The notes: generated from the sequence alone by a model not told the origin. 64,000 nt of DNA from Candidatus Aminicenantales bacterium (GCA_049512315.1 JBEKXF010000010.1:62001-126000); one strand, 5' to 3'; counted from the first letter of the stretch, positions 6,863 through 44,443 are shown. Numbers and translations are program-made.

Positions 6863-6891
6863 TTGACTCTGGAAGAACGAATTTGCATAAT
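6863..6891 (+). promoter_or_regulatory. Putative sigma70 promoter of cassette A (LbH-ACP-ligase-NadE)
   Basis: TTGACT-N17-CATAAT. Confidence 0.65.
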
Positions 6892-6945: not shown

Positions 6946-7464
6946 TTGTCTTTCATCTCCGGTTGGCGGCAACGGCTCCTCCGGCGGATGGCCTATGGTA
7001 TGCCGGGAGGTTATACGTTACGGCCCATGCTCCACAAATGGAGAGGTGTGAGGATCGGCAAGAGAGTCTGGATCGGCCAGTACGTCTATATCGACGAGAT
7101 TCACCCGGAAGCCGTCTCGATTGGGGATAATGTAACCATAGGACTCGGAACCTCCATCATCGCCCACCTATACTGGGGGAAAACCCGTGACAAAGATGGA
7201 GCAGGCCCGGTCACCATCAATTCCGACGTTTTTGTCGGTCCTCATTGCGTTATCCTTCCGGGCGTCTGTATCGGTGCCGGAGCGGTCATTCAAGCCGGCT
7301 CGGTCGTTTCCCGCGATGTCCCGCCGCACGTGCTTTTCGGCCATCCCCCGGCTCAACCCCTGGCAGAAGTCATGACTCCATTGATAGCGGACCATTCTTA
7401 TGTAGAATTTGCCCGCGGCTTGCGTCCCCTCAGGAAGAAAGGGGTTCCTCATGAGCGTCGATGA
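6946..7464 (+). CDS. Left-handed beta-helix (hexapeptide repeat) acyltransferase
   Basis: IGKRVWIG, IGDNVTIG, ILPGVCIGAGAVIQAGSVV repeats; TTG 6946 follows an AAGGA RBS and lies downstream of the promoter (the 6835 start would precede it). Confidence 0.85.
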   Translation: MSFISGWRQRLLRRMAYGMPGGYTLRPMLHKWRGVRIGKRVWIGQYVYIDEIHPEAVSIGDNVTIGLGTSIIAHLYWGKTRDKDGAGPVTINSDVFVGPHCVILPGVCIGAGAVIQAGSVVSRDVPPHVLFGHPPAQPLAEVMTPLIADHSYVEFARGLRPLRKKGVPHERR

Positions 7465-7699
7465 GATCAGGTCGTTTATTGTCGAAACGTTCCTTTTCGA
7501 GGACGATAAAGAGCTGTCCGAGACGACACCTCTTTTAGAAAAGCATATCGTCGATTCCACCGGAGTCTTGGAAATCGTCTCGTTCCTGGAGCAGCGCTTC
7601 GGGATCCGCGTCGAAGACGCTGAGCTGATACCCGAGAATTTGAACAGCATCAGGAATATCGCGAATTATATAGCGAAGAAAAGCGCGACTCTCGTTTGA
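7451..7699 (+). CDS. Acyl/aminoacyl carrier protein (DST-type)
   Basis: 82 aa, acidic, IVDSTGVLE phosphopantetheine motif, ELIPENL. Confidence 0.9.
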   Translation: MSVDEIRSFIVETFLFEDDKELSETTPLLEKHIVDSTGVLEIVSFLEQRFGIRVEDAELIPENLNSIRNIANYIAKKSATLV

Positions 7700-9288
7700 T
7701 GAAATTCGACCCCGTCCTCGTTCACGCCTGGCTCTCGCGAACGGCCCAACGGTTTCCCGACAAAACGGCATTAGTGTGCGACGGCAAGCGGTTATCTTAC
7801 ACTGAGATCGATCAAGCCTCCACCCGGCTGGCCCGGTCGATCGTCAACAAGGGCCTCGAGAAGGGTGACCGTGTGGTCGTTTTCATGGAAAATAGTGCGG
7901 AAGCAGTCATCGGGATCTATGGAATTCTCAAGGCGGGCGGGATCTTCGTTGTGGCGGAAGCGGCTTCGACGTCCTCCTCGTTGAAGCATGTCCTGCGCGA
8001 CTCGGGGGCCCGGTTCGTTATGACCCACATCGATAAAGCAAAGGTTGTCGAGAGCGTCCTGTCGGACAGAAGCGTCGATATCCGGGTGGTCTGGGCCGGG
8101 AAGCCCGACCCGGCCTCGGCTTTTTCTCCGGCGGGCCTCGAATGGGAGGTTTTGCTGAGGGAGCCCAATCTGGAGGTCGCCCTTCCGCGGGTCATCGATG
8201 TCGACCTGGCGGCCCTGATCTACACATCGGGCTCGACGGGCCGGCCGAAAGGAATCATGTGTACACACCATAACATGGTATCGGCCGCCAGGAGCATCCT
8301 CCAATACATCGGAAATGACGAGAACGACGTGATCCTCAATGTTTTGCCGCTGGCCTTCGACTACGGCCTCTATCAGGTCCTCATGGGCTTCATGTTCGGG
8401 GGAACGATCGTCCTCGAGCGCGAGATGGGATTCCTCGAGCCGATGATCCGGGCCATAGAGAAAGAACGCGTCACCGGGTTCCCGGTAGTCCCTTTGATAA
8501 GCGCCATTCTATTGAAAATGAAGAGGGTGCCGGTGGAACGGTTTTCGTCACTTCGCTACGTGACGAGCACCGGAGCCTTGTGGCCGGCTGCTCATATCCG
8601 TCAATTCCGAAAGCTCCTGCCGAACGTCACATTTTTCTCCATGTACGGTCTAACAGAATGCAAGCGTGTCGGGTTCCTCCCCCCCGAATTTATCGATTCG
8701 TATCCTGAGTCGGTAGGCCGCGCGATGCCGAATTGTGAAGCCCTGGTCATCGATGAAAAGGGAAATCCTGTCCGGCCGGGAGAAACGGGGGAGCTGGTCG
8801 TCCGCGGTTCGAACGTCATGCAGGGTTACTGGAACGACCGCGAGACGACGGAGCAGTTCTTCAGGGCGGGCCGATATCCGGCCGACCGGGTCCTCCACAC
8901 GGGCGATTGGTTTCGTCTGGGCGAGGAAGGGCTTCTGTATTTCGTGGGCCGCAGAGACGATTTGATAAAATCTTTCGGCCGGAGGGTGGGTCCGCGGGAG
9001 GTGGAGGATATCATCGTCTCGATGCCGGGAATCGCGGAGGCCGCGGTTGTCGGAGTGGCGGACGAGATCAATGGCCAAGTTCCTGGCGCATTCGTTGTCA
9101 CAAAAAAGGGGTCGGGCTTGGATGAATCCGGGATCAAGATCTTTTGTGGGAAACACCTCGAGCCCTACAAGGTCCCCCGGTATCTCTGGTTCGTCGATTC
9201 TCTCCCCAGGACGCCGAATGGGAAGGTCGATAAAAAGAGCCTGAAGGATCAGGCTTCCGCCAGCCTGGGGAAGAGGGGATCATCTTGA
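7699..9288 (+). CDS. ANL-superfamily AMP-dependent ligase (adenylation enzyme)
   Basis: YTSGSTGRPKG, YGLTE, HTGD, GRRDD, PRTPNGKVDK; TGATG coupling to the ACP gene. Confidence 0.92.
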   Translation: MKFDPVLVHAWLSRTAQRFPDKTALVCDGKRLSYTEIDQASTRLARSIVNKGLEKGDRVVVFMENSAEAVIGIYGILKAGGIFVVAEAASTSSSLKHVLRDSGARFVMTHIDKAKVVESVLSDRSVDIRVVWAGKPDPASAFSPAGLEWEVLLREPNLEVALPRVIDVDLAALIYTSGSTGRPKGIMCTHHNMVSAARSILQYIGNDENDVILNVLPLAFDYGLYQVLMGFMFGGTIVLEREMGFLEPMIRAIEKERVTGFPVVPLISAILLKMKRVPVERFSSLRYVTSTGALWPAAHIRQFRKLLPNVTFFSMYGLTECKRVGFLPPEFIDSYPESVGRAMPNCEALVIDEKGNPVRPGETGELVVRGSNVMQGYWNDRETTEQFFRAGRYPADRVLHTGDWFRLGEEGLLYFVGRRDDLIKSFGRRVGPREVEDIIVSMPGIAEAAVVGVADEINGQVPGAFVVTKKGSGLDESGIKIFCGKHLEPYKVPRYLWFVDSLPRTPNGKVDKKSLKDQASASLGKRGSS

Positions 9289-9315
9289 ATCAGGCACTCC
9301 TGTAGAGGAGGCGGC

Positions 9316-10296
9316 ATGAAAGAGCAGGCACGCAAAACACAGTTCACTTTGGACGCTCTCAAGATCGATTGCGAAGCCGAAAGCCGGCGCCTCGCCTCTT
9401 TTATCAGGAACGTTCTGAGCGACGTCCTGCATAAACGGGGAGTCGTGGTCGGTGTCTCCGGTGGCATCGACAGCAGTGTCACGGCAGCCCTATGCGTGCG
9501 GGCTATCGGAGCCGAGCGAGTCGTCGGCATCCTGATGCCGGAGCGGGATTCCAACCCCCGCACCCTGGAATGGAGCCAGTTGGTCGCCGATAGCCTGGGG
9601 ATCCGAACCTTCCATCGCGACATCACAACCACCCTGGCGGCGCTCGGTTTCTATCACGAGCATGCGGAGGTGGTCCGGAGTTTGGTCCCGGAATATGCGG
9701 AGGGCTGGAAGATGAAAATGGTCATCTCCGACCCGACCGCCAATACCGAGTTCGCGTTTTTTTCAATCGTGGCCCAATCGCCCGAAAAGGCCACGATCAA
9801 GAAAAGGCTCCCGGCGGAGGCCTTCCTCAAGATTGTCGCCCTTTCCAATTTCAAGCAACGGACGCGAAAAATGCTGGAGTATCACTACGCCGATAGACTC
9901 AATTACGCTGTGGGAGGAACGTCCAACCGGCCCGAGACCGATCAGGGTTTTTTTGTGAAGCTGGGAGACGGCTCGGGCGACTTCAAGCCGATTGCTCACA
10001 TGTATAAGACCCAGGTTTTTCAAATGGCGGAATATCTCGGCGTGCCCGAAGAGATCAGGAACCGCCCGCCTTCTGCCGACATCCACTCGCTGGCGCAGGG
10101 ACAGGACGAATTTTTCTTCGTCCTACCTTACGAGAAGATGGACGCCTGCGTCTTTGGTCAATTGAACGGAATTCCCGCAGAGGAAGTCGCGGCCGCCATC
10201 GGCTTGGATGCCGGCATGGTCACCCGGTTTTATCGCAGCATCGCCATCCGCCGGGCCCGGACGGAGTACCTGAGGGCCCAGCCGATTTATCCCTGA
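9316..10296 (+). CDS. nadE: NH3-dependent NAD+ synthetase-like protein (divergent copy)
   Basis: PP-loop SGGIDS, NFKQRTRK, FFVKLGDG, KPIAHMYKTQV; no glutaminase domain. Confidence 0.8.
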   Translation: MKEQARKTQFTLDALKIDCEAESRRLASFIRNVLSDVLHKRGVVVGVSGGIDSSVTAALCVRAIGAERVVGILMPERDSNPRTLEWSQLVADSLGIRTFHRDITTTLAALGFYHEHAEVVRSLVPEYAEGWKMKMVISDPTANTEFAFFSIVAQSPEKATIKKRLPAEAFLKIVALSNFKQRTRKMLEYHYADRLNYAVGGTSNRPETDQGFFVKLGDGSGDFKPIAHMYKTQVFQMAEYLGVPEEIRNRPPSADIHSLAQGQDEFFFVLPYEKMDACVFGQLNGIPAEEVAAAIGLDAGMVTRFYRSIAIRRARTEYLRAQPIYP

Positions 10297-10668
10297 GCCA
10301 TATGACGGTTCCCCTCCGATAAAGCTCTTTCGTTGTCCGCGAACAAAGGGGAAACGTGAAATTCTCCCCAAAAAATGGACAGGGGGATAAGGTGCATATT
10401 GGCCTGCCATAACTCTGATGGCCTTATTCCCCGTTCCGGGCTTAGCTATACGGCCCCTTCCGCCGAAAAACGTCACACGATACCCGTATGGGGAGCAGGG
10501 GGGATTGCGTGATGAGGGCCCTCTGGCGCGCGTTTTTTGCCCAAAGGAGGCAAATACCCACTCCTCCCTTGGTGCACACCCAATCCGCATACCCCCCCCA
10601 AGGCACTCGCAGATGTGCCGATCTGCTCTCGGATAGGCGATAGTTTTCAGAGCATATAAGCTCACTCC

Positions 10669-10695
10669 TTGACATCGCATGATTAGTGGCATAAT
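10669..10695 (+). promoter_or_regulatory. Possible promoter at the 5' edge of the Wzc relic
   Basis: TTGACA followed by TGgCATAAT (extended -10), but spacer only 15 nt. Confidence 0.35.
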
Positions 10696-11232
10696 AATTG
10701 GCATATACAAAGCAGTGCGGGCGCCACCACCATCGCTGCCGGTCTGGCGGGTGCGCTTTCGGAGACAGGCGGTGGCAAGGTGCTGCTGGTGGATTCAACC
10801 GGGAAGCAGGGGGCGGCGCATCACTTCTCCTAGCGCAAGCCCGTGTGTTCTCTGTTCGATATTCTGCGCGAGAAGAAATGCGAATCCCCGGCGCCCCAGC
10901 AACGGTTCCAGGTTGTGTCGGTGCGCGATTTGAATGGGAGCTTGTATCCGGCTCGAACCAAGCCGTTCGATACGCTAATACCCAAGCTGAAGGCCAGCGA
11001 TTATGATTTTGTCGTTTTCGATCTGCCGCCCTTGCAGCCCACCAGCATCACGTTTCGCCTGGCCGGTTATCTGGACCAACTGCTGCTCGTGGCCGAGGCG
11101 GAACGAACCCATTGTGACGCCCTGAAGCATGTGGTTTCCACGCTCCAGGACTTCAATACCAACGCGAAGTTCGCCATCGTGTTGAACAAGAGCGGTCAGT
11201 ATCTGCAGACCTGCATAAAAGCATCGGCCTAG
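10687..11232 (+). pseudogene. Relic of a Wzc/CapB-type BY-kinase C-terminal domain; 5'-truncated, with in-frame TAG
   Basis: One frame reads SSAGATTIAAGLAGALSETGGGKVLLVD...HHFS*RKPVCSLFD...YDFVVFDLPP...LDQLLLVAEAERT...VLNK; TAG at 10831-10833; no start codon for the N-terminal part. Confidence 0.75.
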
Positions 11233-11255
11233 GGAAACGCCGGAGGGGAAAGGAT

Positions 11256-11924
11256 ATGAATGTTTTGAGATGGGCCTGGAAGACCACCCGGGAAAAAGAC
11301 ATTGTTCAAACCGTAAAGATTGCGAGCAACTTCGTGCTGGACCTTTTCTTCGATTGGAGGTACGGCACGGACACCATGCGCAGGCTACATCGCGATACCC
11401 TGGATGCGCGATCCGAGAATCAGTCGCATTCCTCTTCGTACGGGGCGACCAAGGTGGGTCCCTTCCTGCGTTTGTTGACCCAACTCGACCTGCCGAGGGA
11501 CAGCAACTTCGTGGATATCGGAGCAGGTAAGGGCCGGGTGCTGTTGATGGCCGCACAATACGGATTTCGCAAAGTCATCGGCATCGAATTTGCCGGGCGA
11601 CTCTGCGCGATTGCCCGCAACAACGTGGAACTTTTTCGCCGGAAGCACAAGTTGCTGTCGCCGATCGAAGTGATTGAAGCGAACGCGATCGAATATTCGT
11701 TTCACGCCGAAGATCGAGTGTTCTTCATGTATAATCCCTTTGACTCCTTTATTCTCGCCCAAGTCCTGGACAATTTGCGGCGCTCGCTGGAAGAAAAACC
11801 GCGACCCATCTGGCTCATCTACAATACGCCCAAGTACGACGACGTGGTCAAAGCCTCCCGTCTTTTCAAGTCAGATTCTTTCTTTGAGATCGGGGGGAAC
11901 CAGTTCCGGGTCTATATGAACTGA
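11256..11924 (+). CDS. Class I SAM-dependent methyltransferase
   Basis: FVDIGAGKGR, VIGIEF, FFMYNPF. Confidence 0.88.
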   Translation: MNVLRWAWKTTREKDIVQTVKIASNFVLDLFFDWRYGTDTMRRLHRDTLDARSENQSHSSSYGATKVGPFLRLLTQLDLPRDSNFVDIGAGKGRVLLMAAQYGFRKVIGIEFAGRLCAIARNNVELFRRKHKLLSPIEVIEANAIEYSFHAEDRVFFMYNPFDSFILAQVLDNLRRSLEEKPRPIWLIYNTPKYDDVVKASRLFKSDSFFEIGGNQFRVYMN

Positions 11925-12019
11925 GAAAAGAATTCTATTCGCGCGAACCCAGGCTTTTGTTCCCGCGTGTCCAAGCTCTCTTTCCGTAGTGGTCTTCCCC
12001 CGAAAAAACGGACACGCTG

Positions 12020-12252
12020 TTAAGCCTGCATCGCCTCACGATAATACTCCAACGGAGTTTTGTGATTCAAGGACGAATGCCTTCTCTGCACTTCTGAACT
12101 GGCATATTGCCCCCTCGATCCGAATGGAAGATCAATCCGGCTTGGGGCGTCCGAGTGCGAAGCCCTTTCTGCAAGGATTCAACTCCCAGGACCTGGCACA
12201 TCTTCATCACCTCAAACCCGGAGCTGATTCTCTCCATGAAGCGATATTTCAT
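12020..12252 (-). pseudogene. IS3 orfB integrase remnant with two internal deletions and a frameshift
   Basis: Only the N-terminus MKYRFM...VLGV, the LIFHSDRG / QYAS segment and the C-terminus RRHSSLNHKTPLEY remain. Confidence 0.8.
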
Positions 12253-12533
12253 CTGGGGTGTTTGGAGAAGATAGCCAACACTTTTTTTAGGATCTCCCGC
12301 TCCTGCTCGAGATCCAAGCCCTTTTTCTTCAACCTCATCAGCTCTTCCTCATGGGGCTTCATATGCCCCTTCCCGGGAAAAGAGCTCTCCTGATCTGCTA
12401 AATAATCGTTCTTCCAGCGATGCAGCACATTTTCGTGGAGCCCCAGTTCTCGGCAAACGTCCCGGATCCCCCGGCCCCCTTCTAAGACGAGCCTCACCGC
12501 GTCCCTTTTGAACTCCGTGTCGAAGACCCGCAA
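12249..12533 (-). CDS. IS3-family transposase OrfA (HTH plus leucine zipper)
   Basis: FDTEFKRDAVRLV...ELGLHENVLHRW...LEQEREILKK; stop overlaps the orfB ATG. Confidence 0.85.
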   Translation of the reverse strand: MRVFDTEFKRDAVRLVLEGGRGIRDVCRELGLHENVLHRWKNDYLADQESSFPGKGHMKPHEEELMRLKKKGLDLEQEREILKKVLAIFSKHPR

Positions 12534-12551
12534 CCACCGCCCCGGGAGGCC

Positions 12552-13403
12552 CTAGAGGTCGATGCCGCTCAGCCCGGAACTCAAAGCCCAGAGTTTATCT
12601 TGGAGCGCTCTATCATGCGACATATCGGAAGACTTCTTTTCTTTCATGTCCTTAAAAAATGTTCCGCTAATTCCCTCGACATCGTCGGACGACGCCAGAT
12701 AAACGATCGTTTCCGCCCCCTCCGCGGGAGTCAGGAGCTGCCTTTTCATGAGATAATACAGTCTATGCTTCAGCCAATACGCCAACCCGTTATTACGCGC
12801 GAAATTTGTGGCCACCCCGCCGGGATCGACCGCGTTTACAGTGATTTTTGTGTTCTTCAACATCCCCGCGAGCGTATATGTAAACTGGACATTGGCCAGC
12901 TTCGAGTTTGAATATTGCTTTCTGCCGTCATAGTCCTTCGCGGACAAGACGTTTTCGATGACCCCGGTAGCCGCCTCATGTGCTCCCGATGAAACGTTGA
13001 TGATCCTCGCTCGCTCAGATCTTTTAAGCGTATCGATCAAGGAAAGCGTGAGCACGAAGTGGCCCAGATGGTTCGTGGCCAGGGTCATTTCTATCCCCTC
13101 TTCGGTCAACTCGTGCTGGAGAAACCTCGCCCCGGCGTTATTGATCAGGACATCTATCCGAGGGTGGTCTTTTTTTATCCTGGCAGCTAAGCCGCGTGCA
13201 TCCCGGAGCACGGAGAGATCGCAAACATCGTAGCCCACATTCCCATTTCGCGATTTTTGCTTGACCTCTTCACAGACCCGTGCCGCTTTCGTCCCATTCC
13301 TTCCCACGAGGATGAGGCGATAATTCTTCTTTGCCAGGCCCAGCGCGGCCGCTTTGCCGATTCCGGATGTCGCACCGGTTATGAGGCATATATTCTGGTT
13401 CAT
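12552..13403 (-). CDS. Short-chain dehydrogenase/reductase (retinol-DH/WWOX-like)
   Basis: TGATSGIG, NNAG, NHLGHF, YSNSK. Confidence 0.9.
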   Translation of the reverse strand: MNQNICLITGATSGIGKAAALGLAKKNYRLILVGRNGTKAARVCEEVKQKSRNGNVGYDVCDLSVLRDARGLAARIKKDHPRIDVLINNAGARFLQHELTEEGIEMTLATNHLGHFVLTLSLIDTLKRSERARIINVSSGAHEAATGVIENVLSAKDYDGRKQYSNSKLANVQFTYTLAGMLKNTKITVNAVDPGGVATNFARNNGLAYWLKHRLYYLMKRQLLTPAEGAETIVYLASSDDVEGISGTFFKDMKEKKSSDMSHDRALQDKLWALSSGLSGIDL

Positions 13404-13439
13404 GCGAGGTCCTCGCCAATAATCTTCCCGTCGCTGTGT

Positions 13440-14462
13440 TCAGTCCAGGTGCTTTTTTATCCTCGTTTCAAGCTCAATTTCCGGGACCGTCGTCACTAAT
13501 ACCGGAGGCAGATGCAGGTACTGCGTCGCCGCTCGTTTTCTATCAATATCCTGATAGATGGTGCTGACCCGGCCGGGAGGCAGGCCCGTATGGCGGCTGA
13601 TGACCTCCGCGCCGAGGCCATGGTTCTTGCCGTACAGGCAGAGGTCCATGACCTCGGTGGGAGCGGAAAAGAAGAACTCGTCCTGACCCTGGGGAAGCGA
13701 ATACGTATCGGTCGTCGGCGGCCGGCTGATGATGGCTTCCGGCAAGCCAAGATAGCGTGCCATCTGATAAACCTGCGTCTTGTACAGATGAGCGATGGGT
13801 TTGATATCGGCTGCGCCGTCGCCCTGTTTGACAAAAAATCCCTGGTCATATTCGAGCCGGTTGGGAGTGCCCGCGACCGCGTAGTTGTGCAAATCGGCAT
13901 GGTAATACTCGAGCATCTTTCTCGTGCGCTGCTTGAAATTCGTCGAGGCCACGATCGCCAGATATGAATTCAGCGCCAGCCGCTTTTTGATCACCCGGCC
14001 GTCCGGCGAGACGGCGACGACCGAAAACAGCGTATAGGCCTTGTCTTCGGCGATTTCGGACACGACGATTTTTGACTTCCATTCCCGGCCATAGCCGGGA
14101 ATGGCCGACCGGACGGCATCGTCATACTTGTCATAAAAACCGACGGCCTCGAGGATGCGAGTGATATCGATAGGGACCTTTCGAATCTCCAAATGGTCCG
14201 CGATGAGCGAGCTGAGGTCCATCGTGTCCTCCGCCGAATGCCGCTCGGGCATCTGGAGGCCGATGACTCTGTCCTTGCCCACGGCTTGAACGCACAAAGC
14301 GGCGGTCACGCTGCTGTCAATGCCGCCGGAGATGCCGACGATCAGACCCCGCCTGTGCAGTTTTTTTCCAAGCGCATCCCTGATCGCCTGGGATATCGTG
14401 GTCAGCTCGCTCGCGCAATCGATATTGAGAAGCTCGGGTGAAAAGGAGGCCTTGTCATTCAT
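13440..14462 (-). CDS. nadE: NH3-dependent NAD+ synthetase-like protein (second copy)
   Basis: SGGIDS, NFKQRTRK, GTPNRLE, GDGAAD, PPTTDTYSL. Confidence 0.85.
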   Translation of the reverse strand: MNDKASFSPELLNIDCASELTTISQAIRDALGKKLHRRGLIVGISGGIDSSVTAALCVQAVGKDRVIGLQMPERHSAEDTMDLSSLIADHLEIRKVPIDITRILEAVGFYDKYDDAVRSAIPGYGREWKSKIVVSEIAEDKAYTLFSVVAVSPDGRVIKKRLALNSYLAIVASTNFKQRTRKMLEYYHADLHNYAVAGTPNRLEYDQGFFVKQGDGAADIKPIAHLYKTQVYQMARYLGLPEAIISRPPTTDTYSLPQGQDEFFFSAPTEVMDLCLYGKNHGLGAEVISRHTGLPPGRVSTIYQDIDRKRAATQYLHLPPVLVTTVPEIELETRIKKHLD

Positions 14463-14492
14463 GTGACCCTCGTTGAGACAATGGGTGCTCCG

Positions 14493-16472
14493 TCAGCGGG
14501 CTCTTTTGTCAATGTGAATGTCCCACTTCATGTCCGCCGCCTCGGAGCCCGCCTGTCTCTCGATGTATTGCCCAAACAATAATTGCGTCGAAATGATCCC
14601 AGCGAGGGCCATCCCCTCTGTCTCACTAGTGCTCGCTCCGGAATCCAACTTTTTAAAAAGCTTTGTGACTTTTTCCGGGTCGAAGATCCCGGCCTCCTTA
14701 ATTTTCCCCTCCAAGAGCATGCCCTGATAACCGTCGGATTGGAGCCGGCCGATAAACGCTTTCTGAATCGGCGCGCGATAAGGGTGCTTGGTCCTTTTCG
14801 TGATGGACGGCGGCAGCACGGAACTCAGCGTCCTTTTCAGGATATGCTTCTCATCGAGGCCGAGGATTTTCCATCTCGGGGAAACCCGCGACATGAAATC
14901 AATGATCCGGAAATCCAAGTAGGGCGGGCGGATTTCCACGGAATGGGCCATGGCCATCCGGTCCCCCTGGGACGTCAGCAGATAGTTGCTCAAGAACAGC
15001 TTGTCTTCCAGGTACTGGGCCTTGGCAAGCGTGTCCCGGCGCTCGAAATCGGCGGGGAGCGTGCGGGTGAGTTCGTCGGTCGCCGAATAGCCGCTGACCT
15101 CCAGCTGCATGTTTTTTGAGAACAACTGCTTGATGCGGGCCGTGTTGTTCCAGCGGACAAGGTGAGAGAAAAGCGGGTCCCGGATCCCGGCAGAGTCATG
15201 AAGCATGAACTGCCGGTATGACTTTTTTTCCCGGGCCGTTTTGAATATCTGAGGATACAGGTGTTCGAAGAGCAGCGCGCGGAATTTTGAATCAGGCCGC
15301 CGCAGGACGAATTGCCGGACCAGGGCCTCGCGGAAGATGTCGTAGCCCCCGAACACCTCGTCCGCCCCCTCTCCGGTGCAGACGACCTTGATCCCCTGCT
15401 CATGGACGAATCGCGAGAGAAGATACATGGGTACGGGCGCGGTCCTCAGGACAGGCGTCTCACAGTGCCAAACAATGCAGGGAAATGTTTCGGCGATGAG
15501 CGCATTCCGGGCGTTCAATTCGTGATGCTCGACCTGGAGATAGGCGGCCATCTCGTTTTGATAGCCGCCCTCATCGAATTCCTGCGCCTCGAAACGGACC
15601 CCGAAGGTGCGCACATGCTTGTTGAAATGCTGCGAGATCAGGGCCGTGATGCCCGAGGAATCCAACCCCCCGCTGAGATAGGACCCGACCGGCACGTCGG
15701 CGCGAAGGCGGATTCTCGTCGCGTCCATGAGCAGGGTCATGATCTGCTCGCTAATTTCCCGGGGAGCGTCTTGCGTATAAGAACCGGGCGGCTGATAGGG
15801 AATATCCCAGTATTTGCGCAGGTGCTGTCCATGCGCGTTGATGGTGAGAGCATGCCCGGGCTTGAGTTCCTGAATGTTATTGAATACGGTCACGCCCGGC
15901 AGGGTTGTCCAAAAGGTAAACACCTGATCCAGGGCCCGCGGGTTCAGGGAAGGTGCGGGAAGCAGCCTGGAAGCGATCAGGGATTTGATTTCCGAGGCGA
16001 AGAGGAACCGGCCGTCATGCTCCGCGTAGTATAAGGGGCAAATCCCGAAATGGTCCCTGGCGAGAAAGAGGGCCTTTTTGTTAGCGTCCCAGATGCCAAA
16101 GGCAAATTGCCCGTTCAGCTCGTCGACACAATCCGCGCCCTTTTCCTCATAAAGATGAACGATGACTTCGGTGTCGGTATTCGTGTGGAACCGGTGCCCT
16201 TTCATTTCGAGCCACGTCCTCAGCTCCGGATAGTTATAGATTTCCCCATTCAGGACGATCCAGACCGTCTCGTCTTCGTTGTGGATCGGCTGGCCGCCGG
16301 TCGCGAGGTCGATGATGCTCAGCCGGGAGTGCCCAAGCCCGACATGCCCGTCGAGATAAATCCCTTTTTGATCAGGACCCCTATGCCCGATCGCGCGGAC
16401 CATGGACGAGAGGCTCGTGTCCGATATCCGGCCTTCGTCCCGAGTGTCGAATATCCCGGCTATACCGCACAT
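14493..16472 (-). CDS. asnB: Asparagine synthase (glutamine-hydrolysing)-type amidotransferase
   Basis: N-terminal MCGIAG Ntn cysteine, RLSIID, NGEIYN, LSGGLDS, TGEGADE. Confidence 0.93.
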   Translation of the reverse strand: MCGIAGIFDTRDEGRISDTSLSSMVRAIGHRGPDQKGIYLDGHVGLGHSRLSIIDLATGGQPIHNEDETVWIVLNGEIYNYPELRTWLEMKGHRFHTNTDTEVIVHLYEEKGADCVDELNGQFAFGIWDANKKALFLARDHFGICPLYYAEHDGRFLFASEIKSLIASRLLPAPSLNPRALDQVFTFWTTLPGVTVFNNIQELKPGHALTINAHGQHLRKYWDIPYQPPGSYTQDAPREISEQIMTLLMDATRIRLRADVPVGSYLSGGLDSSGITALISQHFNKHVRTFGVRFEAQEFDEGGYQNEMAAYLQVEHHELNARNALIAETFPCIVWHCETPVLRTAPVPMYLLSRFVHEQGIKVVCTGEGADEVFGGYDIFREALVRQFVLRRPDSKFRALLFEHLYPQIFKTAREKKSYRQFMLHDSAGIRDPLFSHLVRWNNTARIKQLFSKNMQLEVSGYSATDELTRTLPADFERRDTLAKAQYLEDKLFLSNYLLTSQGDRMAMAHSVEIRPPYLDFRIIDFMSRVSPRWKILGLDEKHILKRTLSSVLPPSITKRTKHPYRAPIQKAFIGRLQSDGYQGMLLEGKIKEAGIFDPEKVTKLFKKLDSGASTSETEGMALAGIISTQLLFGQYIERQAGSEAADMKWDIHIDKRAR

Positions 16473-16479
16473 GGAGCTT

Positions 16480-16725
16480 TCAAGCGGTCTTTTTGCTCAA
16501 GTACGCGCAGATGTTGGCGATCGTGTCGAGGTTTTCGGGCACCAACTCGTCATCGTTCACTTTGATCATGTAATGCTCTTCGAGATAATTGATGAGTTCG
16601 AGGATGCCCGTCGAGTCGATGATCCCCGCTTCGAGCAGGGAATCCTCGTCCCCCAGCTGCCTGTCGTCCCCGAAGAGGAACCTATCGGCGATAAATTGAC
16701 GGATTTCGATTTCAAGACCGGCCAT
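16480..16725 (-). CDS. Acyl/aminoacyl carrier protein (DST-type), paralog of 7451-7699
   Basis: IIDSTGILE, ELVPENLD. Confidence 0.92.
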   Translation of the reverse strand: MAGLEIEIRQFIADRFLFGDDRQLGDEDSLLEAGIIDSTGILELINYLEEHYMIKVNDDELVPENLDTIANICAYLSKKTA

Positions 16726-16756
16726 GTTCCTTGTCCTAGAGGTCCATTATAACTGA

Positions 16757-18334
16757 TTATCCCTGTTTAGGTTCGCTCTCAAGAAAGATTTGGACACTCT
16801 TGGCCCGGTCGGGCTTTCCACTGCTCGTTTTGGGGATGGAGTCGACGAGCCGCAGTTCTTCCGGAACCTCGAACTTGGGCAATTTCGCGGCGCAATACGC
16901 GAGGATATTTTTCTCCGTATCCGGGATCGGCCTTATCGGGACGACCAGTCCGGCCAAGCGCCGGCCCTCCAGGGGATCCGCGATCCCGAAAACGATGCAT
17001 TCGGCGGCCTCGCCGGATTCGACGATCTTGTCCTCGATCTCCTGGGAGTTGACACGGCGTCCGCCGACTTTGATCTGATCATCCTTCCTGCCGGTCACGA
17101 AAAGAAATCCTTCGTCATCACAATATCCCAAATCGCCGGTATGATACCCGTGTTGGTCAAGGACCTTTTTTGTCGCCTCTTCGTTTTTGTAGTACCCGAG
17201 CATGATATTGTCGCCCCGGGCAACGAGCTCGCCCGGTTCGCCGGGCCCTAACTGTTTGCCCTCGGGGGACATGACGCTCATCGTGACGCCAGGGATAGGG
17301 ATGCCGATCGAATCGATCTTGGAGTCCAAGCGCTCGGGGGGGACATAGGTCAGGCGGGCCGAGGCCTCCGTCGCCCCGTACATGATGACGAGCCGGGTAT
17401 GGCTGGGCAATATCTTCAAGAGCTCGAGCTTGACGCGACGCGGCATGTGCCCGCCCGCCTGCGAGCAGTAGCGGAGCGCGGGGAGCTTGTCGCGGTACTG
17501 GGCCAGCGGCGATTTGAACAGCAGATGGGCATAGGTCGAGGGAACGCCGGAAAAGCCGGTGACGTCCTCCTCGGCCATCTGTTTCAGAACCGAGGCCGTA
17601 TAGGCGAATTTATTGTTGATGACCACGGTCCCGCCGACGGCGAAATGAGTGTTGAGGAGGGACTTGCCCATGACGTAAAAGAAAGGCAGGACGACCATCT
17701 GGACATCGCTCGAGGTGAGCTCGAGGTACTCAATGACGGCCCGCGTGTTGGCTGCGATATTGGCGTGAGAGAGCATGGCCCCTTTCGGCTTTCCTGCCGA
17801 CCCGGAAGTATAAATGATCGCCGCGCACGAATTCGGGTCGATAGCCAGGCCGGGATTTGCGTCGCGTTGGGCGACCGCCTCTTCGGGGAGCGATAAGACG
17901 GCATCTCCCGGACTCTGCCCGGCCCGGCGCGGACCAATGACCATAAGCCGGGCAGCCTGCAACACCGACGCGTCGAGCGCTCTGACGGTCTTTTCGAGCT
18001 TCGACGATACGACCAGGGCCTTTGGCTCCAGTTCCTTGACGAGCTCCGCCAGGCCTTCGGGTTTGATGTCCGTGTTGAGAGAGGCGACGATGCCCCCGGC
18101 TTTGAGGATGCCGTAGTAACAAAACACGTATTCAATACTGTTTTCGCACAGAAGGACGACCCGGTCCCCGGGTCTAACACCCGCCTTGATGAGGTTGTGA
18201 GCCAGCTGATTGGCCCTCTTATTGACTTCGGAATATGAGGCGCGGCCCCGCTCGTGGACGACGGCAACCTTGGTAGGAAACAACCCGGCGTTCTTCTCGA
18301 GAAAATGGTGGACAAGACAACTCGTCGTTTTCAT
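16757..18334 (-). CDS. ANL-superfamily AMP-dependent ligase (second copy)
   Basis: YTSGSAGKPKG, YGATE, HTGD, GRKDD, PKTSSGKPD; ATG 18334 lies downstream of the predicted promoter. Confidence 0.92.
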   Translation of the reverse strand: MKTTSCLVHHFLEKNAGLFPTKVAVVHERGRASYSEVNKRANQLAHNLIKAGVRPGDRVVLLCENSIEYVFCYYGILKAGGIVASLNTDIKPEGLAELVKELEPKALVVSSKLEKTVRALDASVLQAARLMVIGPRRAGQSPGDAVLSLPEEAVAQRDANPGLAIDPNSCAAIIYTSGSAGKPKGAMLSHANIAANTRAVIEYLELTSSDVQMVVLPFFYVMGKSLLNTHFAVGGTVVINNKFAYTASVLKQMAEEDVTGFSGVPSTYAHLLFKSPLAQYRDKLPALRYCSQAGGHMPRRVKLELLKILPSHTRLVIMYGATEASARLTYVPPERLDSKIDSIGIPIPGVTMSVMSPEGKQLGPGEPGELVARGDNIMLGYYKNEEATKKVLDQHGYHTGDLGYCDDEGFLFVTGRKDDQIKVGGRRVNSQEIEDKIVESGEAAECIVFGIADPLEGRRLAGLVVPIRPIPDTEKNILAYCAAKLPKFEVPEELRLVDSIPKTSSGKPDRAKSVQIFLESEPKQG

Positions 18335-18383: not shown

Positions 18384-18412
18384 ATGATAAAACCAACGCC
18401 TTTCTTTGGCAA
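18384..18412 (-). promoter_or_regulatory. Putative sigma70 promoter of cassette B
   Basis: Minus strand TTGCCA-N17-TATCAT. Confidence 0.55.
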
Positions 18413-18639
18413 GCCCTTGTTGACGGGAGTGGAAGGGACAAGCAAGTTCTTCCGTATACATGGGTTCCGGCATCAGGAGTGCCCCCCACATGAGCTAGGA
18501 TCTCCCTCAATCGCATTGTTCCCCGTTCTGAAGAAATGTGTTACGATACTGTCGAGAGCGTCATGTAGGAAAATACAAGGATAGGCCACAGTCGACGGCC
18601 AAGGGAGCCTCATCTCACCTATCAAGGATTAAGGGACTC

Positions 18640-20025
18640 ATGAGAGCGGACCTTCTCAGCCAACTCCTGTGCCCCAATTGTGGTGGAGCGCTTACGGCGA
18701 GCGTAAGATCCCCCTCCCAAGGGAGCGAGATCGAATATGGGATTCTGACGTGCGGCTGCAATGAGTACCCCATCATCGGTGGAATTCCGATTTTTAAGGT
18801 TGAAGGCCGGGTCGATGTCATGCGGCAAACGGCTGATTCCGTTTTACAATATGGACCTAACATCAAGGAACTAATCAGCCTTGTCCGGGCCGGCCAATAT
18901 GAAAAAGCGCTTCTATTGCTCTTGGTCATTCCTAAACGAACCGTCAACAAGCTATTGGCATTCGTCGATTACGCACCCCAAAAGGCTAGGGCGGGAGTCC
19001 AGGCCCTAGCTAGGCGCCTGTGGTCAAATCAGCAACAGAAGAACCGGGAACTGCTGGTCAATATTGAGAAAGGGACAACGGCTCATGATTTAATCAGCTT
19101 CTTCTACCGGGATTCTCTGCGCAGCGAGGATTACAACTATTTTTATTACAGATTTTCTCAGCCTCGCCACCTCGCTCAGCTCTCCTTGGCAAGCCTCTTG
19201 CCGGTTTCCGAAAAGCCCATTCTGGATTTGGCCTGCGGGTTCGGACACGTCATGCATTACTGGATCATGACTCATCCCGGGCAGCGAGTCGTCGGCGTCG
19301 ATCGCAATTTTTTCCAACTCTACGTCGCAAGACATTGGGTGGCCCCGGGCGGGGATTTCATCTGCTCTGAGGCTGATCTCAAGCTTCCGTTTTCTTCGCA
19401 CAGTTTCTGCGGTGTGTTTTGCGGGGATGCCTTTCATTGCTTTCTGAGGCGATGGCAGTGCGCTGAGGAGATGAAACGTGTGATCGAGCCGGAGGGATTG
19501 ATCATTCTGGCGCGCTTCGGTAACCGTCAGGCCGGACCACGAGAAGGGTATGAATTATCCGTGGAAGGCTATTTGAAGCTGTTTGAAGGCCTCCGCTGGC
19601 GAATGCTGTCCGAGGACGATCTCCTGCAGGGGTACCTCAAACGACTTGGCCCTCAGCTGGAAGAGCCATCGACCTTGTCAGGTTTAACTCCCCTTAAATG
19701 GCTTTATCTCGTGGCCTCCGAGAGGGCTGAGAGGTTTCGGAATTACCCAAGATTCGAGACCTGGCCTCACAGTGTGGGCCGGTTAAAATTGAACCCCTTA
19801 TATAGAGAAGTGAACAAGGACCCCGCCGGCAATATGACGGTTGAGTTCCAGTTTCCATCGAGCTGGTATGAATTTGAGAACTCAGCCTGCTCACAATATA
19901 TGCCCAAGACGGCCATCATCAGCACGAGTACTCTCAATGCCCTGTCGGCGGGGACATGGTCCGATGAAATCGAATCTCTCGTCCGACAATGCGTTATCAT
20001 TGGAGTGCCTGACCGTTATTTATAG
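18640..20025 (+). CDS. Trm112-like N-terminal Zn ribbon fused to a class I SAM methyltransferase domain
   Basis: LLCPNCGG...GILTCGC..YPIIGGIP; ILDLACGFG, VVGVD; AAGGGA RBS before ATG 18640. Confidence 0.75.
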   Translation: MRADLLSQLLCPNCGGALTASVRSPSQGSEIEYGILTCGCNEYPIIGGIPIFKVEGRVDVMRQTADSVLQYGPNIKELISLVRAGQYEKALLLLLVIPKRTVNKLLAFVDYAPQKARAGVQALARRLWSNQQQKNRELLVNIEKGTTAHDLISFFYRDSLRSEDYNYFYYRFSQPRHLAQLSLASLLPVSEKPILDLACGFGHVMHYWIMTHPGQRVVGVDRNFFQLYVARHWVAPGGDFICSEADLKLPFSSHSFCGVFCGDAFHCFLRRWQCAEEMKRVIEPEGLIILARFGNRQAGPREGYELSVEGYLKLFEGLRWRMLSEDDLLQGYLKRLGPQLEEPSTLSGLTPLKWLYLVASERAERFRNYPRFETWPHSVGRLKLNPLYREVNKDPAGNMTVEFQFPSSWYEFENSACSQYMPKTAIISTSTLNALSAGTWSDEIESLVRQCVIIGVPDRYL

Positions 20026-20238: not shown

Positions 20239-20423
20239 GAATTTCGTCCTTCCCCACCTCTTACAAAAAGGTCCCTCCATATGGGGGAAAATGGACGGCT
20301 AGCTGCCGCCTTGATTTTCGAGCTCAAAAAATGTTAGTGTATTTATGAAGAAGGGCCAAGGATCATAGGGGTCATAGGAGGAAAGGAAAAATGCCAGGAA
20401 TCAATTCATATAAAAGAGCTCGT

Positions 20424-21833
20424 ATGAAGAGCGGATTGAAGTTGGCAATATTGGTTTTTTCATTTTTGGCGTTGCTTTCTGCCTGCGTCTCGACCAGCAA
20501 CAATACACCGCCAGAGTCAACTCATGGATGGACCTGGGTATCCGGCAGTAATTCCGCAGGTCAGGCGGGCATTTACGGCACCCAGGGCACAGCCTCTCCG
20601 TCAAATGTCCTCGGGGCAAGAGAGTATCCTGTATCCTGGCTCGATTCCAGCGGCAAACCCTGGCTCTTCGGGGGACATGGCTATGATTCGGCTGGCAATG
20701 GCGGCGATCTCAATGACCTGTGGAAGTATGACCCGACAACCCTTGAATGGACCTGGGTATCCGGCAGTAGTACCGCAGGTCAGGCGGGCATCTACGGCAC
20801 CCAGGGCACAGCCGCTCTGTCAAACGTCCCCGGGGCAAGATCTGGTGCTGTATCCTGGCTCGATTCCAGCGGCAAACTCTGGCTCTTTGGGGGAAAGGGC
20901 TATGATTCGGCCGGCAACAACCGGTATCTCAATGACCTATGGAAGTATGACCCGACAACCCTTGAATGGACCTGGGTATCCGGCAGTAATACCATAGATC
21001 AGGCTGGCATCTACGGAACAAAGGGCACAGCCGATTCGTCAAACGTCCCCGGGGGAAGGTATGGGGCTGTATCCTGGCTCGATTCCAGCGGCAAACTCTG
21101 GCTCCACGGGGGATGGGGCTTAGATTCGGCCGGTGCAAACGGCGATCTCAATGACTTGTGGGAGTATGACCCGGCAACCCTTGAATGGACCTGGGTATCC
21201 GGCAGTAATACCATAGATCAGGCGGGCATCTACGGAACAGAGGGCACAGCCGCTCTGTCAGACATCCCCGGGGGAAGGGATACGGCTGCATCCTGGCTCG
21301 ATTCCAGCGGCAAACTCTGGCTCTTCGGCGGCGGAGGCTATGATTCGGCTGGCAATCTAGGCCAGCTCAATGACCTCTGGGAGTATGACCCGACAACCCT
21401 TGAGTGGACCTGGGTATCCGGTAGTAACACGGCAAATCAGGTGGGCATCTACGGCACCCAGGGCACGGCCGCTCCGTCAAACGTCCCCGGGGGAAGGTGT
21501 GGGGTTGTATCCTGGCTCGATTCCAGCGGCAAACTCTGGCTCTTCGGGGGAAAGGGCTATGATTCGGCTGGCAATCTAGGCGAGCTCAATGACCTCTGGG
21601 AGTATGACCCGACAACCCTTGAATGGACCTGGGTATCCGGCAGTGAAATAGCAAATCAGGTGGGCACGTACGGTACCCAGGGCAGACGCGCTCTGTCAAA
21701 CGTCCCCGGGGGAAGGGAATATGCTGTATCCTGGCTCGATTCGAGCGGCAAACTCTGGCTCTTCGGGGGAGCGGGCTATGATTCGGCTGGCCGTTACAAC
21801 TATCTCAATGACCTGTGGCATTACACCCGATAA
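20424..21833 (+). CDS. Kelch-repeat beta-propeller lipoprotein (6 x 73 aa)
   Basis: Lipobox LLSAC; six repeats WTWVSGS...GxR...W.DSSGK.WL.GG...LNDLW.Y. Confidence 0.88.
   Translation: MKSGLKLAILVFSFLALLSACVSTSNNTPPESTHGWTWVSGSNSAGQAGIYGTQGTASPSNVLGAREYPVSWLDSSGKPWLFGGHGYDSAGNGGDLNDLWKYDPTTLEWTWVSGSSTAGQAGIYGTQGTAALSNVPGARSGAVSWLDSSGKLWLFGGKGYDSAGNNRYLNDLWKYDPTTLEWTWVSGSNTIDQAGIYGTKGTADSSNVPGGRYGAVSWLDSSGKLWLHGGWGLDSAGANGDLNDLWEYDPATLEWTWVSGSNTIDQAGIYGTEGTAALSDIPGGRDTAASWLDSSGKLWLFGGGGYDSAGNLGQLNDLWEYDPTTLEWTWVSGSNTANQVGIYGTQGTAAPSNVPGGRCGVVSWLDSSGKLWLFGGKGYDSAGNLGELNDLWEYDPTTLEWTWVSGSEIANQVGTYGTQGRRALSNVPGGREYAVSWLDSSGKLWLFGGAGYDSAGRYNYLNDLWHYTR
20529..21830 (+). repeat. Six near-identical 219-bp intragenic tandem repeats
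   Basis: TGGACCTGGGTATCCGG starts at 20529, 20748, 20967, 21186, 21405 and 21624. Confidence 0.95.
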
Positions 21834-21954: not shown

Positions 21955-23265
21955 CTAAGAATTATATTTTCTGAACACGGGTTTTACGGACTCCCCGACC
22001 AGGTACTTCTCGATGCCCTCATTCAGCGCCTTTTTGTAGACGACCAGGGCTTCTGCGATTCTTTCGACGGTTTGTTTGATATCCCGGTCCGAATGCGAAT
22101 ACGAGACGATGCTGGAAGGCATCAAGAGTCCCCGTTTCATGGTCTCCTGCAGGAACAGGGTCCTGAAGGGCTGAGAGGGCTTCCCGTCCTGGTCGCGGCT
22201 CGTGTAGACGGAACAGCAGTCCGGCCCGATGATGGACACCTGTTCCCGGAGGCCAAGCTCTCCGGAAACCCGATTGACTCCCTCCGCAAGCTTATGTCCC
22301 TGTCGGTAGAGAGTCTCGATGACCGGGTTCTCCTTGTAGAACTTCATGGTCGCCAGCGCCGCCGCCAGGGCATGATTTTCGGCGCCGTGCGTGGTCGATA
22401 TCAAGAAGACCCTCTCCTTATCATGGCGCAGCCCGCCGAGCTCCATGATCTCCCTTTTTCCCGCCAGCGCGGAAATGGCGAAACCGTTTCCCAGGGCTTT
22501 GCCGAAAGCGGACAGGTCGGGCACGATGTCGTATTTTTTTTGGGCCCCGCCGAGGTGCCAACGGAACCCGGTGATCATCTCGTCGAGGATGAAGACGGTC
22601 CCGTTCTCGTGGGCGATCTTCTGAAGCTCGTGCAGGAAGTTGTCCTTGGGCGGGTCGTACTTCTCGGCCTCGAGAATGACACAGGCGACCTTGCCGGGAT
22701 GCCTGTCGAAAAGCTCTTTGACGCTTTCGATATCGTTGAAGTGAAACTTGACGGTGAGCTCCTTGGTGCAATCGGGGATGCCCGCCGACATGGGCGTGCT
22801 TCCGATGAACCAATCGTCGACCGAGAAAAAGGGCTGATCCCCGCAAATGGCCACCAGATCCCTTCCGGTAAAAGCCCTGGCCAGCTTAACCGCCCCGCTC
22901 GTCGCGTCGGAGCCGTCCTTGCAGAATTTCACCATGTCGGCGCCGTCGATGATGGATAGGAACTCCTCGGCGCAGTCCAACTCGATCTTCGCCGGCCTGA
23001 CGAAGTTGTTGCCCAGCAGCATCTGCCCATGGGCCGCCTCGACGACAGGATCGAACGCGTGACCTAAGGTGACGGTGCGCAACCCCATCCCGTATTCGAT
23101 GTATTCGTTGCCGTCGATGTCCCAGACGTGGGACCCCTTGCCCCGGGAGATGTATACGGGCATGCCCTGGGGATATTGGTCATCCCCTTTCGCGTAGGTA
23201 TGACATCCGCCGGGAATGATCTCGTTGAACCTTGTCTGGATTTTTAGGGAACTCTGCAGCTTCAT
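21955..23265 (-). CDS. Class III PLP aminotransferase, glutamate-1-semialdehyde aminomutase-like (polysaccharide-locus type)
   Basis: WDIDGNEY, FILDEMITGFR, AFGKALGNG. Confidence 0.85.
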   Translation of the reverse strand: MKLQSSLKIQTRFNEIIPGGCHTYAKGDDQYPQGMPVYISRGKGSHVWDIDGNEYIEYGMGLRTVTLGHAFDPVVEAAHGQMLLGNNFVRPAKIELDCAEEFLSIIDGADMVKFCKDGSDATSGAVKLARAFTGRDLVAICGDQPFFSVDDWFIGSTPMSAGIPDCTKELTVKFHFNDIESVKELFDRHPGKVACVILEAEKYDPPKDNFLHELQKIAHENGTVFILDEMITGFRWHLGGAQKKYDIVPDLSAFGKALGNGFAISALAGKREIMELGGLRHDKERVFLISTTHGAENHALAAALATMKFYKENPVIETLYRQGHKLAEGVNRVSGELGLREQVSIIGPDCCSVYTSRDQDGKPSQPFRTLFLQETMKRGLLMPSSIVSYSHSDRDIKQTVERIAEALVVYKKALNEGIEKYLVGESVKPVFRKYNS

Positions 23266-31545: not shown

Positions 31546-31546
31546 C

Positions 31547-32311: not shown

Positions 32312-32315
32312 GACC

Positions 32316-32777
32316 TTAGCCTCCTCCAGATTGCCGGGAAGCCAGGAAGGATTCCAAGACTTCGTCGCGGTAGCCCGGGGCGAACTCTCCGAGCGGCAGG
32401 AACGAGAAGAGGAGGTCGGCCGTGCAGACCTTTGCCCCATTGACTTTGATCGAGCACACAGCCGTGGCATACTGGGCCTGACTTGTCCGGATCTCCGCCG
32501 TGATCAACGCGGTCGCACCCGGCCTGACCCACTCCCGGAAAGATGCCGAGCGAATCTGGGCCAACATGGCTTTCCCCTTCCCCTTATCCTTGCCCTCGGC
32601 ATCCAGGCACTTACCGGCTGCCTGGGCCATCATCTCCGTAAGCAGGACCCCGGGCACTACCGGAAATCCAGGAAAATGGTCCCGGAAAAAATCCTGGTCG
32701 CCGGAAATGTGGTATTCCGCCTTGATGGATTTTCCCGGCTCAAGCTCCAGGATCCGGTCTACGAACAGGAAGCGCAT
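32316..32777 (-). CDS. fabZ: FabZ-like 3-hydroxyacyl-ACP dehydratase
   Basis: FLFVDRI, HFPGFPVVPGVLLTE. Confidence 0.85.
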   Translation of the reverse strand: MRFLFVDRILELEPGKSIKAEYHISGDQDFFRDHFPGFPVVPGVLLTEMMAQAAGKCLDAEGKDKGKGKAMLAQIRSASFREWVRPGATALITAEIRTSQAQYATAVCSIKVNGAKVCTADLLFSFLPLGEFAPGYRDEVLESFLASRQSGGG

Positions 32778-32784
32778 GCCTTGA

Positions 32785-33033: not shown

Positions 33034-33083
33034 GGCTCTCAAATCTCCTCAATCGGCAATATATCCGCCATTGCCGTCCAAAA

Positions 33084-44437: not shown

Positions 44438-44443
44438 CTTTGA

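Follow-up and report, generated by a model that had tools for sequence, protein, structure and literature searches.

Two converging ligase-ACP-NadE-like cassettes in a Candidatus Aminicenantales bacterium, candidate amide-forming modules for surface polysaccharide

An operon on pSymB of Sinorhizobium meliloti joining asnB, an acyl carrier protein (ACP) gene, a ligase gene and nadE was reportedly described by Ramos-Vega et al. in 2009, and has been in print since then with no product assigned. The literature searched, with subscription journals and supplements outside its scope, gave no published function for the cassette. An extract of PMC7232532 describes the S. meliloti ligase as acylating its ACP in vivo and as unable to replace FadD. 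VinN (3WV4/3WVN), which serves a macrolactam pathway, recognises 3-methylaspartate or aspartate as a β-amino acid through D230, F231, S299, K330 and R331 (extract of PMC11253843). According to parts of PMC3376133, single-domain NadE enzymes use free ammonia and a clustered two-subunit NadE is the ‘type C’ arrangement; NadE-like paralogues of the kind found here are unmentioned in those parts. In nicotinamide adenine dinucleotide (NAD) synthetases, aromatic residues stack nicotinate and adenine (extract of PMC6946656). Amidation of a dicarboxyl-ACP by an AsnB homologue is described for GbnA/B/C in gladiolin, where GbnC acts on succinyl-ACP, and for malonamyl-ACP in glutarimides (extract of bioRxiv 10.64898/2026.04.24.720606). 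Here, we analyse a 64,000-nucleotide stretch of DNA from a Candidatus Aminicenantales bacterium (GCA_049512315.1 JBEKXF010000010.1:62001-126000), hereafter the window, in which two converging cassettes, A and B, each carry an ANL adenylation enzyme (ligase), an ACP and a NadE-like protein (Table 1). Both are members of the uncharacterised S. meliloti SMb20649-52 operon family.

Two loader types in independent modules

Cassette A adds an LbH (hexapeptide) acyltransferase to the shared set, and cassette B an AsnB-type amidotransferase and an SDR oxidoreductase. The initial annotation of the window placed these nine genes at the correct positions and on the correct strands; all are open and intact, with Pfam and NCBIfam in agreement. 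Our favoured explanation, to which we give about an even chance, is that the locus holds two independent ligase, ACP and NadE-like modules, each of which would build an amide-bearing acyl group on its own ACP for surface polysaccharide.

The pocket region of ligase A has its best solved match in 3WV4/3WVN (79 bits; the next protein scores 36). The equivalents of the VinN pocket residues are D221, Y222, T291, K322 and R323, and the VinN-type features are all present: the amine-binding Asp, the bulky residue next to it, the opposite Ser/Thr and the short Lys-Arg loop. Ligase A is predicted from its sequence to load aspartate or 3-methylaspartate via the β-carboxyl. The contig also carries, 40 kb before the cassettes, a gene for glutamate mutase E (G000:C10:28241-29563), which could be the source of 3-methylaspartate. 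The earlier suggestion that each ligase loads a small plain acid is not borne out for cassette A, whose VinN-like pocket points instead to an aspartate-type amino acid.

Ligase B has Val at the position of the amine-binding Asp and a loop of normal length with an invariant R327; Y220, S225 and Q292 are invariant in 66 aligned relatives. Its best solved matches are acyl-/aryl-CoA ligases at no more than 29% identity. A structure model with fold search gave no substrate lead, and the 120 homologues listed, from 2516 found, bear only generic names or none. The predicted substrate of ligase B is a polar acid, small and without an amine. The malonyl-CoA synthetase MatB was considered and rejected, as ligase B has MYGATE instead of ERYGMTE, the signature motif of MatB (extract of PMC7232532), and is only 28–29% identical to 4FUQ. 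Neither ligase reaches the TIGR03098 cut-off of 592 (ligase A 437 bits, ligase B 328 bits). The genome carries two phosphopantetheinyl transferase genes. The differing pockets of the two ligases fit the earlier proposal of two different substituents.

Ligases with a pocket like that of ligase A (D-type, 47 tips) and of ligase B (Y-type, 68 tips) form separate clades (FastTree support 0.97 and 0.81) in a tree that excludes partial sequences and small duplicate loci. The NadE-like proteins divide in the same way: in an IQ-TREE tree of 34 sequences chosen from 175, copy A groups with D-type cassettes (100/100) and copy B with Y-type cassettes (100/99), and the approximately unbiased (AU) test rejects A, B and their nearest relatives as one clade (p-AU 0.0006). 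Among 301 genomes of the class, a D-type ligase occurs in 29, a Y-type in 28 and both in two, this genome (G000) and G286, where they lie on different contigs; about 2.7 would be expected if the types were independent, kin not being independent samples. As the two types occur together in only 2 of 301 genomes, cassettes A and B are independent modules, meeting here at about chance frequency, and their earlier treatment as one two-part system does not hold. We consider it extremely improbable that they are halves of one pathway, with A borrowing AsnB, for example, or the NadE-like proteins forming a heterodimer. The cassettes do face each other within 12 kb, and twin NadE-like genes with one shared ligase are common in relatives, but in those twins the copy that accompanies the Y-type one is of a divergent third clade rather than A-like; the nine A-type genomes searched have no AsnB over cut-off (see below), and both the co-occurrence count and the AU test stand against a single system.

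Identity between the two cassettes is 35% for the ligase, 52% for the ACP and 53% for the NadE-like protein. A recent tandem duplication was rejected on these values, the AU result and the absence of long repeats. A decaying second copy was rejected on the ratio of nonsynonymous to synonymous substitution rates (dN/dS), which is 0.05–0.28 for all nine genes against their nearest relatives (12 of 13 gene pairs computable).

Other arrangements are seen among the relatives. The twin NadE-like genes (L179-L188, L192-L194, L061, L085) lie ~2 kb apart and share one ligase, one copy being of the divergent third clade, and a GDSL/SGNH-like lipoprotein gene is often between or beside them; the twins could form a heterodimer or carry out two successive amidations. 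In seven loci (L196, L197, L206, L209, L210, L212, L294), the order is ACP, D-type ligase, third-clade NadE-like gene and a WbuX-like PP-loop protein (TIGR03573, below cut-off) that takes the place of AsnB. In L087, L010 and L216, close relatives of cassette B, LbH and methylmalonyl-CoA-epimerase-like VOC genes separate the ligase and the ACP, a hint at an epimerisable α-carbon in the Y-type cargo. This pair is missing from cassette B and was not found in the genome with those queries.

NadE-like proteins and NAD synthesis

Both NadE-like proteins pass the cut-off (313) of PRK00876 (NF002048), at 441 and 479 bits; curated annotation labels this family NAD(+) synthase. A search for a separate housekeeping nadE, a check proposed with the initial annotation, found a third and uninterrupted gene on contig C30 (G000:C30:50494-51312; PRK13980 317 bits, cut-off 255; Pfam 268 bits), with a nitrilase-type gene directly upstream, as in the clustered two-subunit ‘type C’ arrangement. 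PRK13980 is over its cut-off in 39 of 41 relatives. PRK00876 is patchy, with matches in 60 of the 301 class genomes. Fifty carrier genomes, part of the 80 reached through cassette loci, were checked, and 47 have a separate uninterrupted NadE (33 by Pfam, 10 more of the long glutamine-dependent kind and four divergent short ones). None was found in the other three (G311, G312 and G338; completeness not given). The near-universal occurrence of a housekeeping NadE, usually the sole source of NAD amidation, is not seen for the NadE-like proteins.

The NadE-like model (pLDDT 94) has the NadE fold (Foldseek E 4e-21, TM 0.84 on target), and among solved structures it lies closest to 2E18, 1XNG and the nicotinamide mononucleotide (NMN) synthetase 3FIU. 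The N-type ATP pyrophosphatase fold, the SGGxDS loop and the Mg/ATP residues of NadE are present, with S48-G49-G50-x-D52-S53, R182, R184, T202, N204, E207, D218 and K231 kept in 99–100% of 140 NadE-like members. Judged from these residues, the adenylation chemistry appears intact. Three changes are family-wide (n = 140): T to V214, A to Q181 and C-terminal F-K to Y318-L319. Lys is kept at the L319 position in 0% of the 140 members, and the C-terminal F/H-K-R of NadE is replaced by Y-L-H/R. The conserved basic residues K134, R164 and K180 lie within or beside the family insertion. R182, K215, D222 and aromatic residues at 212 and 318 are retained; these we take, partly from the annotation of Escherichia coli NadE, to be dinucleotide binders.

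The NadE-like pair could be true NAD (or NMN) synthetase isoenzymes, supplying NAD for sugar dehydrogenases, for instance, with AsnB as nitrogen donor. The NadE fold, most of the active-site residues, the nearest structures, the PRK00876 label and the three carriers with no other NadE found are in keeping with this. Such isoenzymes would, however, be redundant in 47 of the 50 carriers and in this genome, and their patchy spread, their fusion to ligases, the frequent presence of two copies in a locus, the changes at positions 214, 319 and 181 and the large insertion all argue against them; we regard this explanation as very unlikely. The case against NAD synthesis comes from redundancy and context, and could not be made from the active site alone. 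A NAD synthetase role of the cassette proteins is thus unlikely, as had been proposed for these copies, although their active-site residues are only partly changed.

Partner genes, proposed route and surroundings

Partner genes were counted from six-frame translations. An ACP lies near 94 of 111 ligase-NadE-like pairs (43 of 44 D-type, 51 of 67 Y-type), and the family ACPs are acidic (median charge −11). D-S-T-G is present at the phosphopantetheine serine of both ACPs, as first noted, but DST was rejected as a special feature of the locus, being the norm in the family (81 of 103 aligned ACPs) and present in the S. meliloti ACP. Of the 44 D-type ligases, 26 have an LbH of the A type nearby, as do 2 of the 67 Y-type. 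The order LbH, ACP, ligase, NadE-like is kept in many relatives, and the LbH of cassette A retains the His that aligns with the ATH motif of sugar O-acetyltransferases. AsnB, counted within 5 kb on the same strand, a rule that may give low counts, is near 9 of 44 D-type and 34 of 67 Y-type ligases.

The AsnB of cassette B scores 503 bits with TIGR01536 (cut-off 267), starts MCG and has its PP-loop at 267; the N-terminal Cys glutaminase and PP-loop synthetase domains of a glutamine-hydrolysing enzyme are both present. Ten genomes were searched for AsnB. Nine are A-type, with completeness of 90% or more, and none of these gave a match over cut-off (seven no match at all, two weak partial matches); the other, G267, carries two full AsnB genes along with a different cassette. 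The NadE-like protein is therefore the only candidate amide-former of cassette A. A search for long NadE-like proteins gave twelve, of which five are fused to a ligase, four to an AsnB-type domain and one to LbH, and two show no second Pfam family; among the eight junctions read, those of P0004, P0006, P0007 and P0010 look clean.

The constancy of NadE-like with both ligase types, when AsnB is optional, would also suit a coupling ligase that joins a nucleotide-sugar, held in the old nicotinic acid adenine dinucleotide (NaAD) site, to the ACP-bound unit. Either a uronic-acid carboxylate would be adenylated and attacked by the aspartyl-ACP amine, or the tethered carboxylate would be adenylated and attacked by an amino sugar; AsnB, LbH, SDR and the methyltransferases would be optional tailoring enzymes. 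Coupling would explain why R182, K215, D222 and the aromatic residues at 212 and 318, presumed to bind the dinucleotide, are retained; in addition, cassette B encodes neither an LbH nor another obvious transferase. Against it, the amine-binding Asp is missing from the Y-type ligases, whose cargo would then offer no amine. Free ammonia, moreover, is what single-domain NadE enzymes use (extract of PMC3376133). We judge coupling to be unlikely, though deserving some weight.

The relatives of the cassettes are mostly associated with polysaccharide loci, as the initial annotation had supposed. A polysaccharide or exosortase marker occurs in 73 of 84 cassette loci of at least 15 kb (two or more in 61). 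The corresponding figures are 0 of 20 for loci of the housekeeping nadE and 14 of 143 for tiles of the present genome. The contrast is inflated, as the marker profiles derive from the tested loci themselves and the 84, the longer members of a set of 179, include duplicates and kin. The export genes wza/wzc/wzz immediately precede the cassette in many Thermodesulfobacteriota, and in the present lineage exosortase and FemAB-like genes are among its commonest neighbours. The window itself has a Wzx/Wzy-type polysaccharide cluster at ~35.7–60 kb and no polyketide synthase (PKS) or non-ribosomal peptide synthetase (NRPS) assembly genes.

These data bear on the acceptor. An amide unit made on the ACP might go not to a glycan but to a lipid, a surface protein processed by exosortase or a small metabolite for secretion, which would suit the exosortase and FemAB-like neighbours, the S. 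meliloti operon with its lack of polysaccharide genes and the macrolactam pathway of VinN itself. The closest family models, both matched below cut-off, are TIGR03098 (437 against 592 bits) and that of an ornithine-lipid ACP (62 against 130 bits), and the link to OlsH/OlsI ornithine lipids rests on that sub-cut-off ACP match. The loci with two or more markers, the cassettes placed directly after wza/wzc/wzz and the lack of PKS or NRPS genes in the window argue for a glycan instead, and we think a non-glycan acceptor rather unlikely.

The favoured route that we infer, from substrates and ACP-tethered amidation to transfer step and glycan acceptor, would run as follows. Ligase A would load aspartate (or 3-methylaspartate) by its β-carboxyl onto ACP-A. 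With the pantetheine arm holding the unit in the NaAD groove, NadE-like A would adenylate its free α-carboxylate, and ammonia would displace AMP to give β-aspartyl α-amide-ACP-A. LbH would then pass the amide unit to a sugar precursor, or acetylate it for that precursor. Ligase B would load a different, amine-free dicarboxylic or hydroxy acid. The amide steps of cassette B would fall to NadE-like B and AsnB. AsnB would use glutamine and act either on the acid tethered to ACP-B or on a uronic acid; the SDR is a possible tailoring enzyme.

Besides the inflated marker contrast and the three carriers with no other NadE found, several points weigh against this route. The NaAD site of the NadE-like proteins appears only partly changed: F212 and Y318, identified as the stacking positions by motif reading without structure overlay, are still aromatic residues, and the G-F-F-x-K-x-G-D-G motif is similar to the one in solved NadE enzymes. 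With AsnB and NadE-like both in cassette B, one amide-former seems redundant. The association of LbH with D-type ligases comes nearly all from one lineage. Four of the eight fusion junctions read (P0003, P0008, P0009 and P0013) look frameshifted. No marker is present in 11 of the 84 loci; the S. meliloti operon has transport and minCDE neighbours and no polysaccharide genes within 9 kb, and the nearest glycosyltransferase genes in the window are ~35 kb from the cassettes.

The wider proposal seems to us evenly poised between right and wrong: PRK00876 would be a large, misannotated offshoot of NadE that acts on carrier-tethered acids, the constant core of a modular glycan-decorating kit with two or more interchangeable loaders, one of aspartate type and one for amine-free acids, and cassette A, with its four genes, a minimal ACP-dependent amide synthase system. 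If true, many NAD synthase annotations are misassigned (affecting 60 of the 301 genomes of this class) and NadE joins the PP-loop enzymes acting on carrier-protein cargo. This locus adds the two pocket types side by side, a Y-type loader and an AsnB-free minimal cassette. Cassette A separates the NadE-like step from AsnB, and two ligase-ACP-NadE sets in one genome make cognate/non-cognate swaps possible.

The 2.2 kb separating the cassettes, passed over at first, hold a broken Wzc-like fragment, a DOT1-like methyltransferase gene and an IS3 remnant. Sigma-70-like sites upstream of each cassette fit by position the earlier idea of one promoter per cassette, but the total of such sites in the scan (8) is near chance (5.1 ± 2.3 in shuffles). 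The G+C content of the cassette region (~0.53–0.58) is lower than that of the left flank (0.60–0.67). Homologues of the SDR adjoin B-type cassettes in L012, L087, L155 and L297.

Table 1. Features of the cassette region (positions counted from the first nucleotide of the window)
Feature	Position	Strand	Remarks
Sigma-70-like site, upstream of cassette A	6863..6891	+	pattern match only, 10/12
LbH (hexapeptide) acyltransferase, cassette A	6946..7464	+	galactoside/maltose O-acetyltransferase type; ATH-motif His kept
ACP A	7451..7699	+	DSTG; 52% identity to ACP B
ANL adenylation enzyme A (ligase A)	7699..9288	+	VinN-like pocket D221, Y222, T291, K322, R323
NadE-like PP-loop enzyme A	9316..10296	+	PRK00876 subfamily; ~55-residue insertion including three-stranded element
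Wzc-like tyrosine-kinase fragment, broken	10730..11232 (start approximate)	+	in-frame stop, no start; TIGR03018, TIGR01007 below cut-off
DOT1-like S-adenosylmethionine-dependent methyltransferase	11256..11924	+	44% homologue adjoins related cassette in L059
IS3-family remnant	11990..12533 (lower coordinate approximate)	-	orfA and truncated orfB
SDR oxidoreductase, cassette B	12552..13403	-	best NCBIfam PRK06197, below cut-off
NadE-like PP-loop enzyme B	13440..14462	-	PRK00876; 53% identity to copy A, other clade
AsnB-type glutamine amidotransferase, cassette B	14493..16472	-	N-terminal Cys and PP-loop motif
ACP B	16480..16725	-	DSTG
ANL adenylation enzyme B (ligase B)	16757..18334	-	‘Y-type’ pocket; Y220, S225, Q292, R327 invariant
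Sigma-70-like site, upstream of cassette B	18384..18412	-	pattern match only, 10/12

Further genes of the window and genome were noted. A third carrier-protein cassette (30469-34124, −) encodes FabH-like, ACP, FabZ-like, SDR and LbH proteins; the same set stands beside NadE-like cassettes in L057, L059, L071 and L195, which suggests a shared glycan-acylation toolkit. Two paralogues with 62–66% identity (23458-24612 and 26220-27743, −) have a PP-loop-like motif, no Pfam match and a faint match to QueC, the second with a ~120-residue insertion. They accompany a class III aminotransferase (21955-23265) and a DUF362 gene, and a similar pair flanks the B-type cassette of L087. An MBOAT protein (DltB-like, below cut-off) and an adjacent membrane-anchored protein with a weak DUF1574 match (43475-45916, −) are a possible outward acyl-transfer pair. 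Divergent from cassette B is a gene for a Trm112-like zinc-ribbon and class I methyltransferase (18538-20025, +), with no homologue in the other fetched loci. A sugar-nucleotide block (45921-51528, −; epimerase, C-methyltransferase, RmlC-like, DUF4910, nucleotidyltransferase and PIG-L) directly adjoins cassette A in L092 and L093. Scattered through the island (20391-21833, 28586-30268, 34229-35602, 59889-61625 and 62244-63008) are genes for a Kelch-repeat lipoprotein, a thermolysin-like M4 peptidase, an apiosidase-like glycosidase and a protein that matches no Pfam family, together with a transposase-like open reading frame. Elsewhere in the genome (G000:C6:63628-66020), another ANL ligase clusters with an ACP (DSF), a phosphopantetheinyl transferase and a class II pyridoxal phosphate enzyme.

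Comparison with known systems

The S. meliloti cluster named in the initial annotation is a true homologue. The pSymB genes, in the order asnB, ACP (SMb20651), ligase (SMb20650) and nadE, belong to the same four families in one operon, at 44–53% identity; the operon was seen on a plasmid of strain RCAM1115 (AsnB, ACP, ligase, NadE-like). Its ACP has DSTG, as do ACPs A and B. Its ligase is D-type, with the VinN-like pocket of ligase A (47% identity to A, 37% to B). The likeness can be refined: the gene set matches cassette B, where all four genes are present with a ligase of the other pocket type, and the ligase matches that of cassette A, which has three of the four genes. S. meliloti thus pairs a D-type ligase with AsnB, whereas here the D-type ligase goes with LbH and no AsnB, and AsnB goes with a Y-type ligase and an SDR.

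VinN/VinL, the system that loads a β-amino-acid starter in the vicenistatin pathway (PDB 3WV4, 3WV5, 3WVN), involves a stand-alone adenylation enzyme, whose pocket and short loop are matched by ligase A; the pocket is absent from ligase B. Cassette A has no PKS or VinO-type decarboxylase gene and has NadE-like and LbH partners instead. NadE (EC 6.3.1.5; PDB 2E18, 1XNG, 1NSY) and the NMN synthetase 3FIU have in common with the NadE-like proteins the fold, the PP-loop, the Mg/ATP residues and part of the NaAD site. The NadE-like proteins differ in their ~55-residue insertion, altered C-terminus, T to V change in GFFTK, patchy and redundant occurrence and link to an ACP and ligase.

In the gladiolin and glutarimide systems, a tethered dicarboxylate is amidated by an asparagine-synthetase homologue that works with a dedicated ACP (extract of bioRxiv 10.64898/2026.04.24.720606); cassette B can be modelled on this. 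Gladiolin relies on an acyltransferase for the transfer of succinyl from CoA, and on a PKS to use the product (same extract); here, there are an ANL ligase, a NadE-like protein and no PKS. The exosortase A/PEP-CTERM families are also close. The ligase family TIGR03098 is the best NCBIfam match of ligase A (437 bits, cut-off 592), and the amidotransferase family TIGR03108 is the second of AsnB (457 bits, cut-off 817). Exosortase genes are frequent neighbours of the cassettes.

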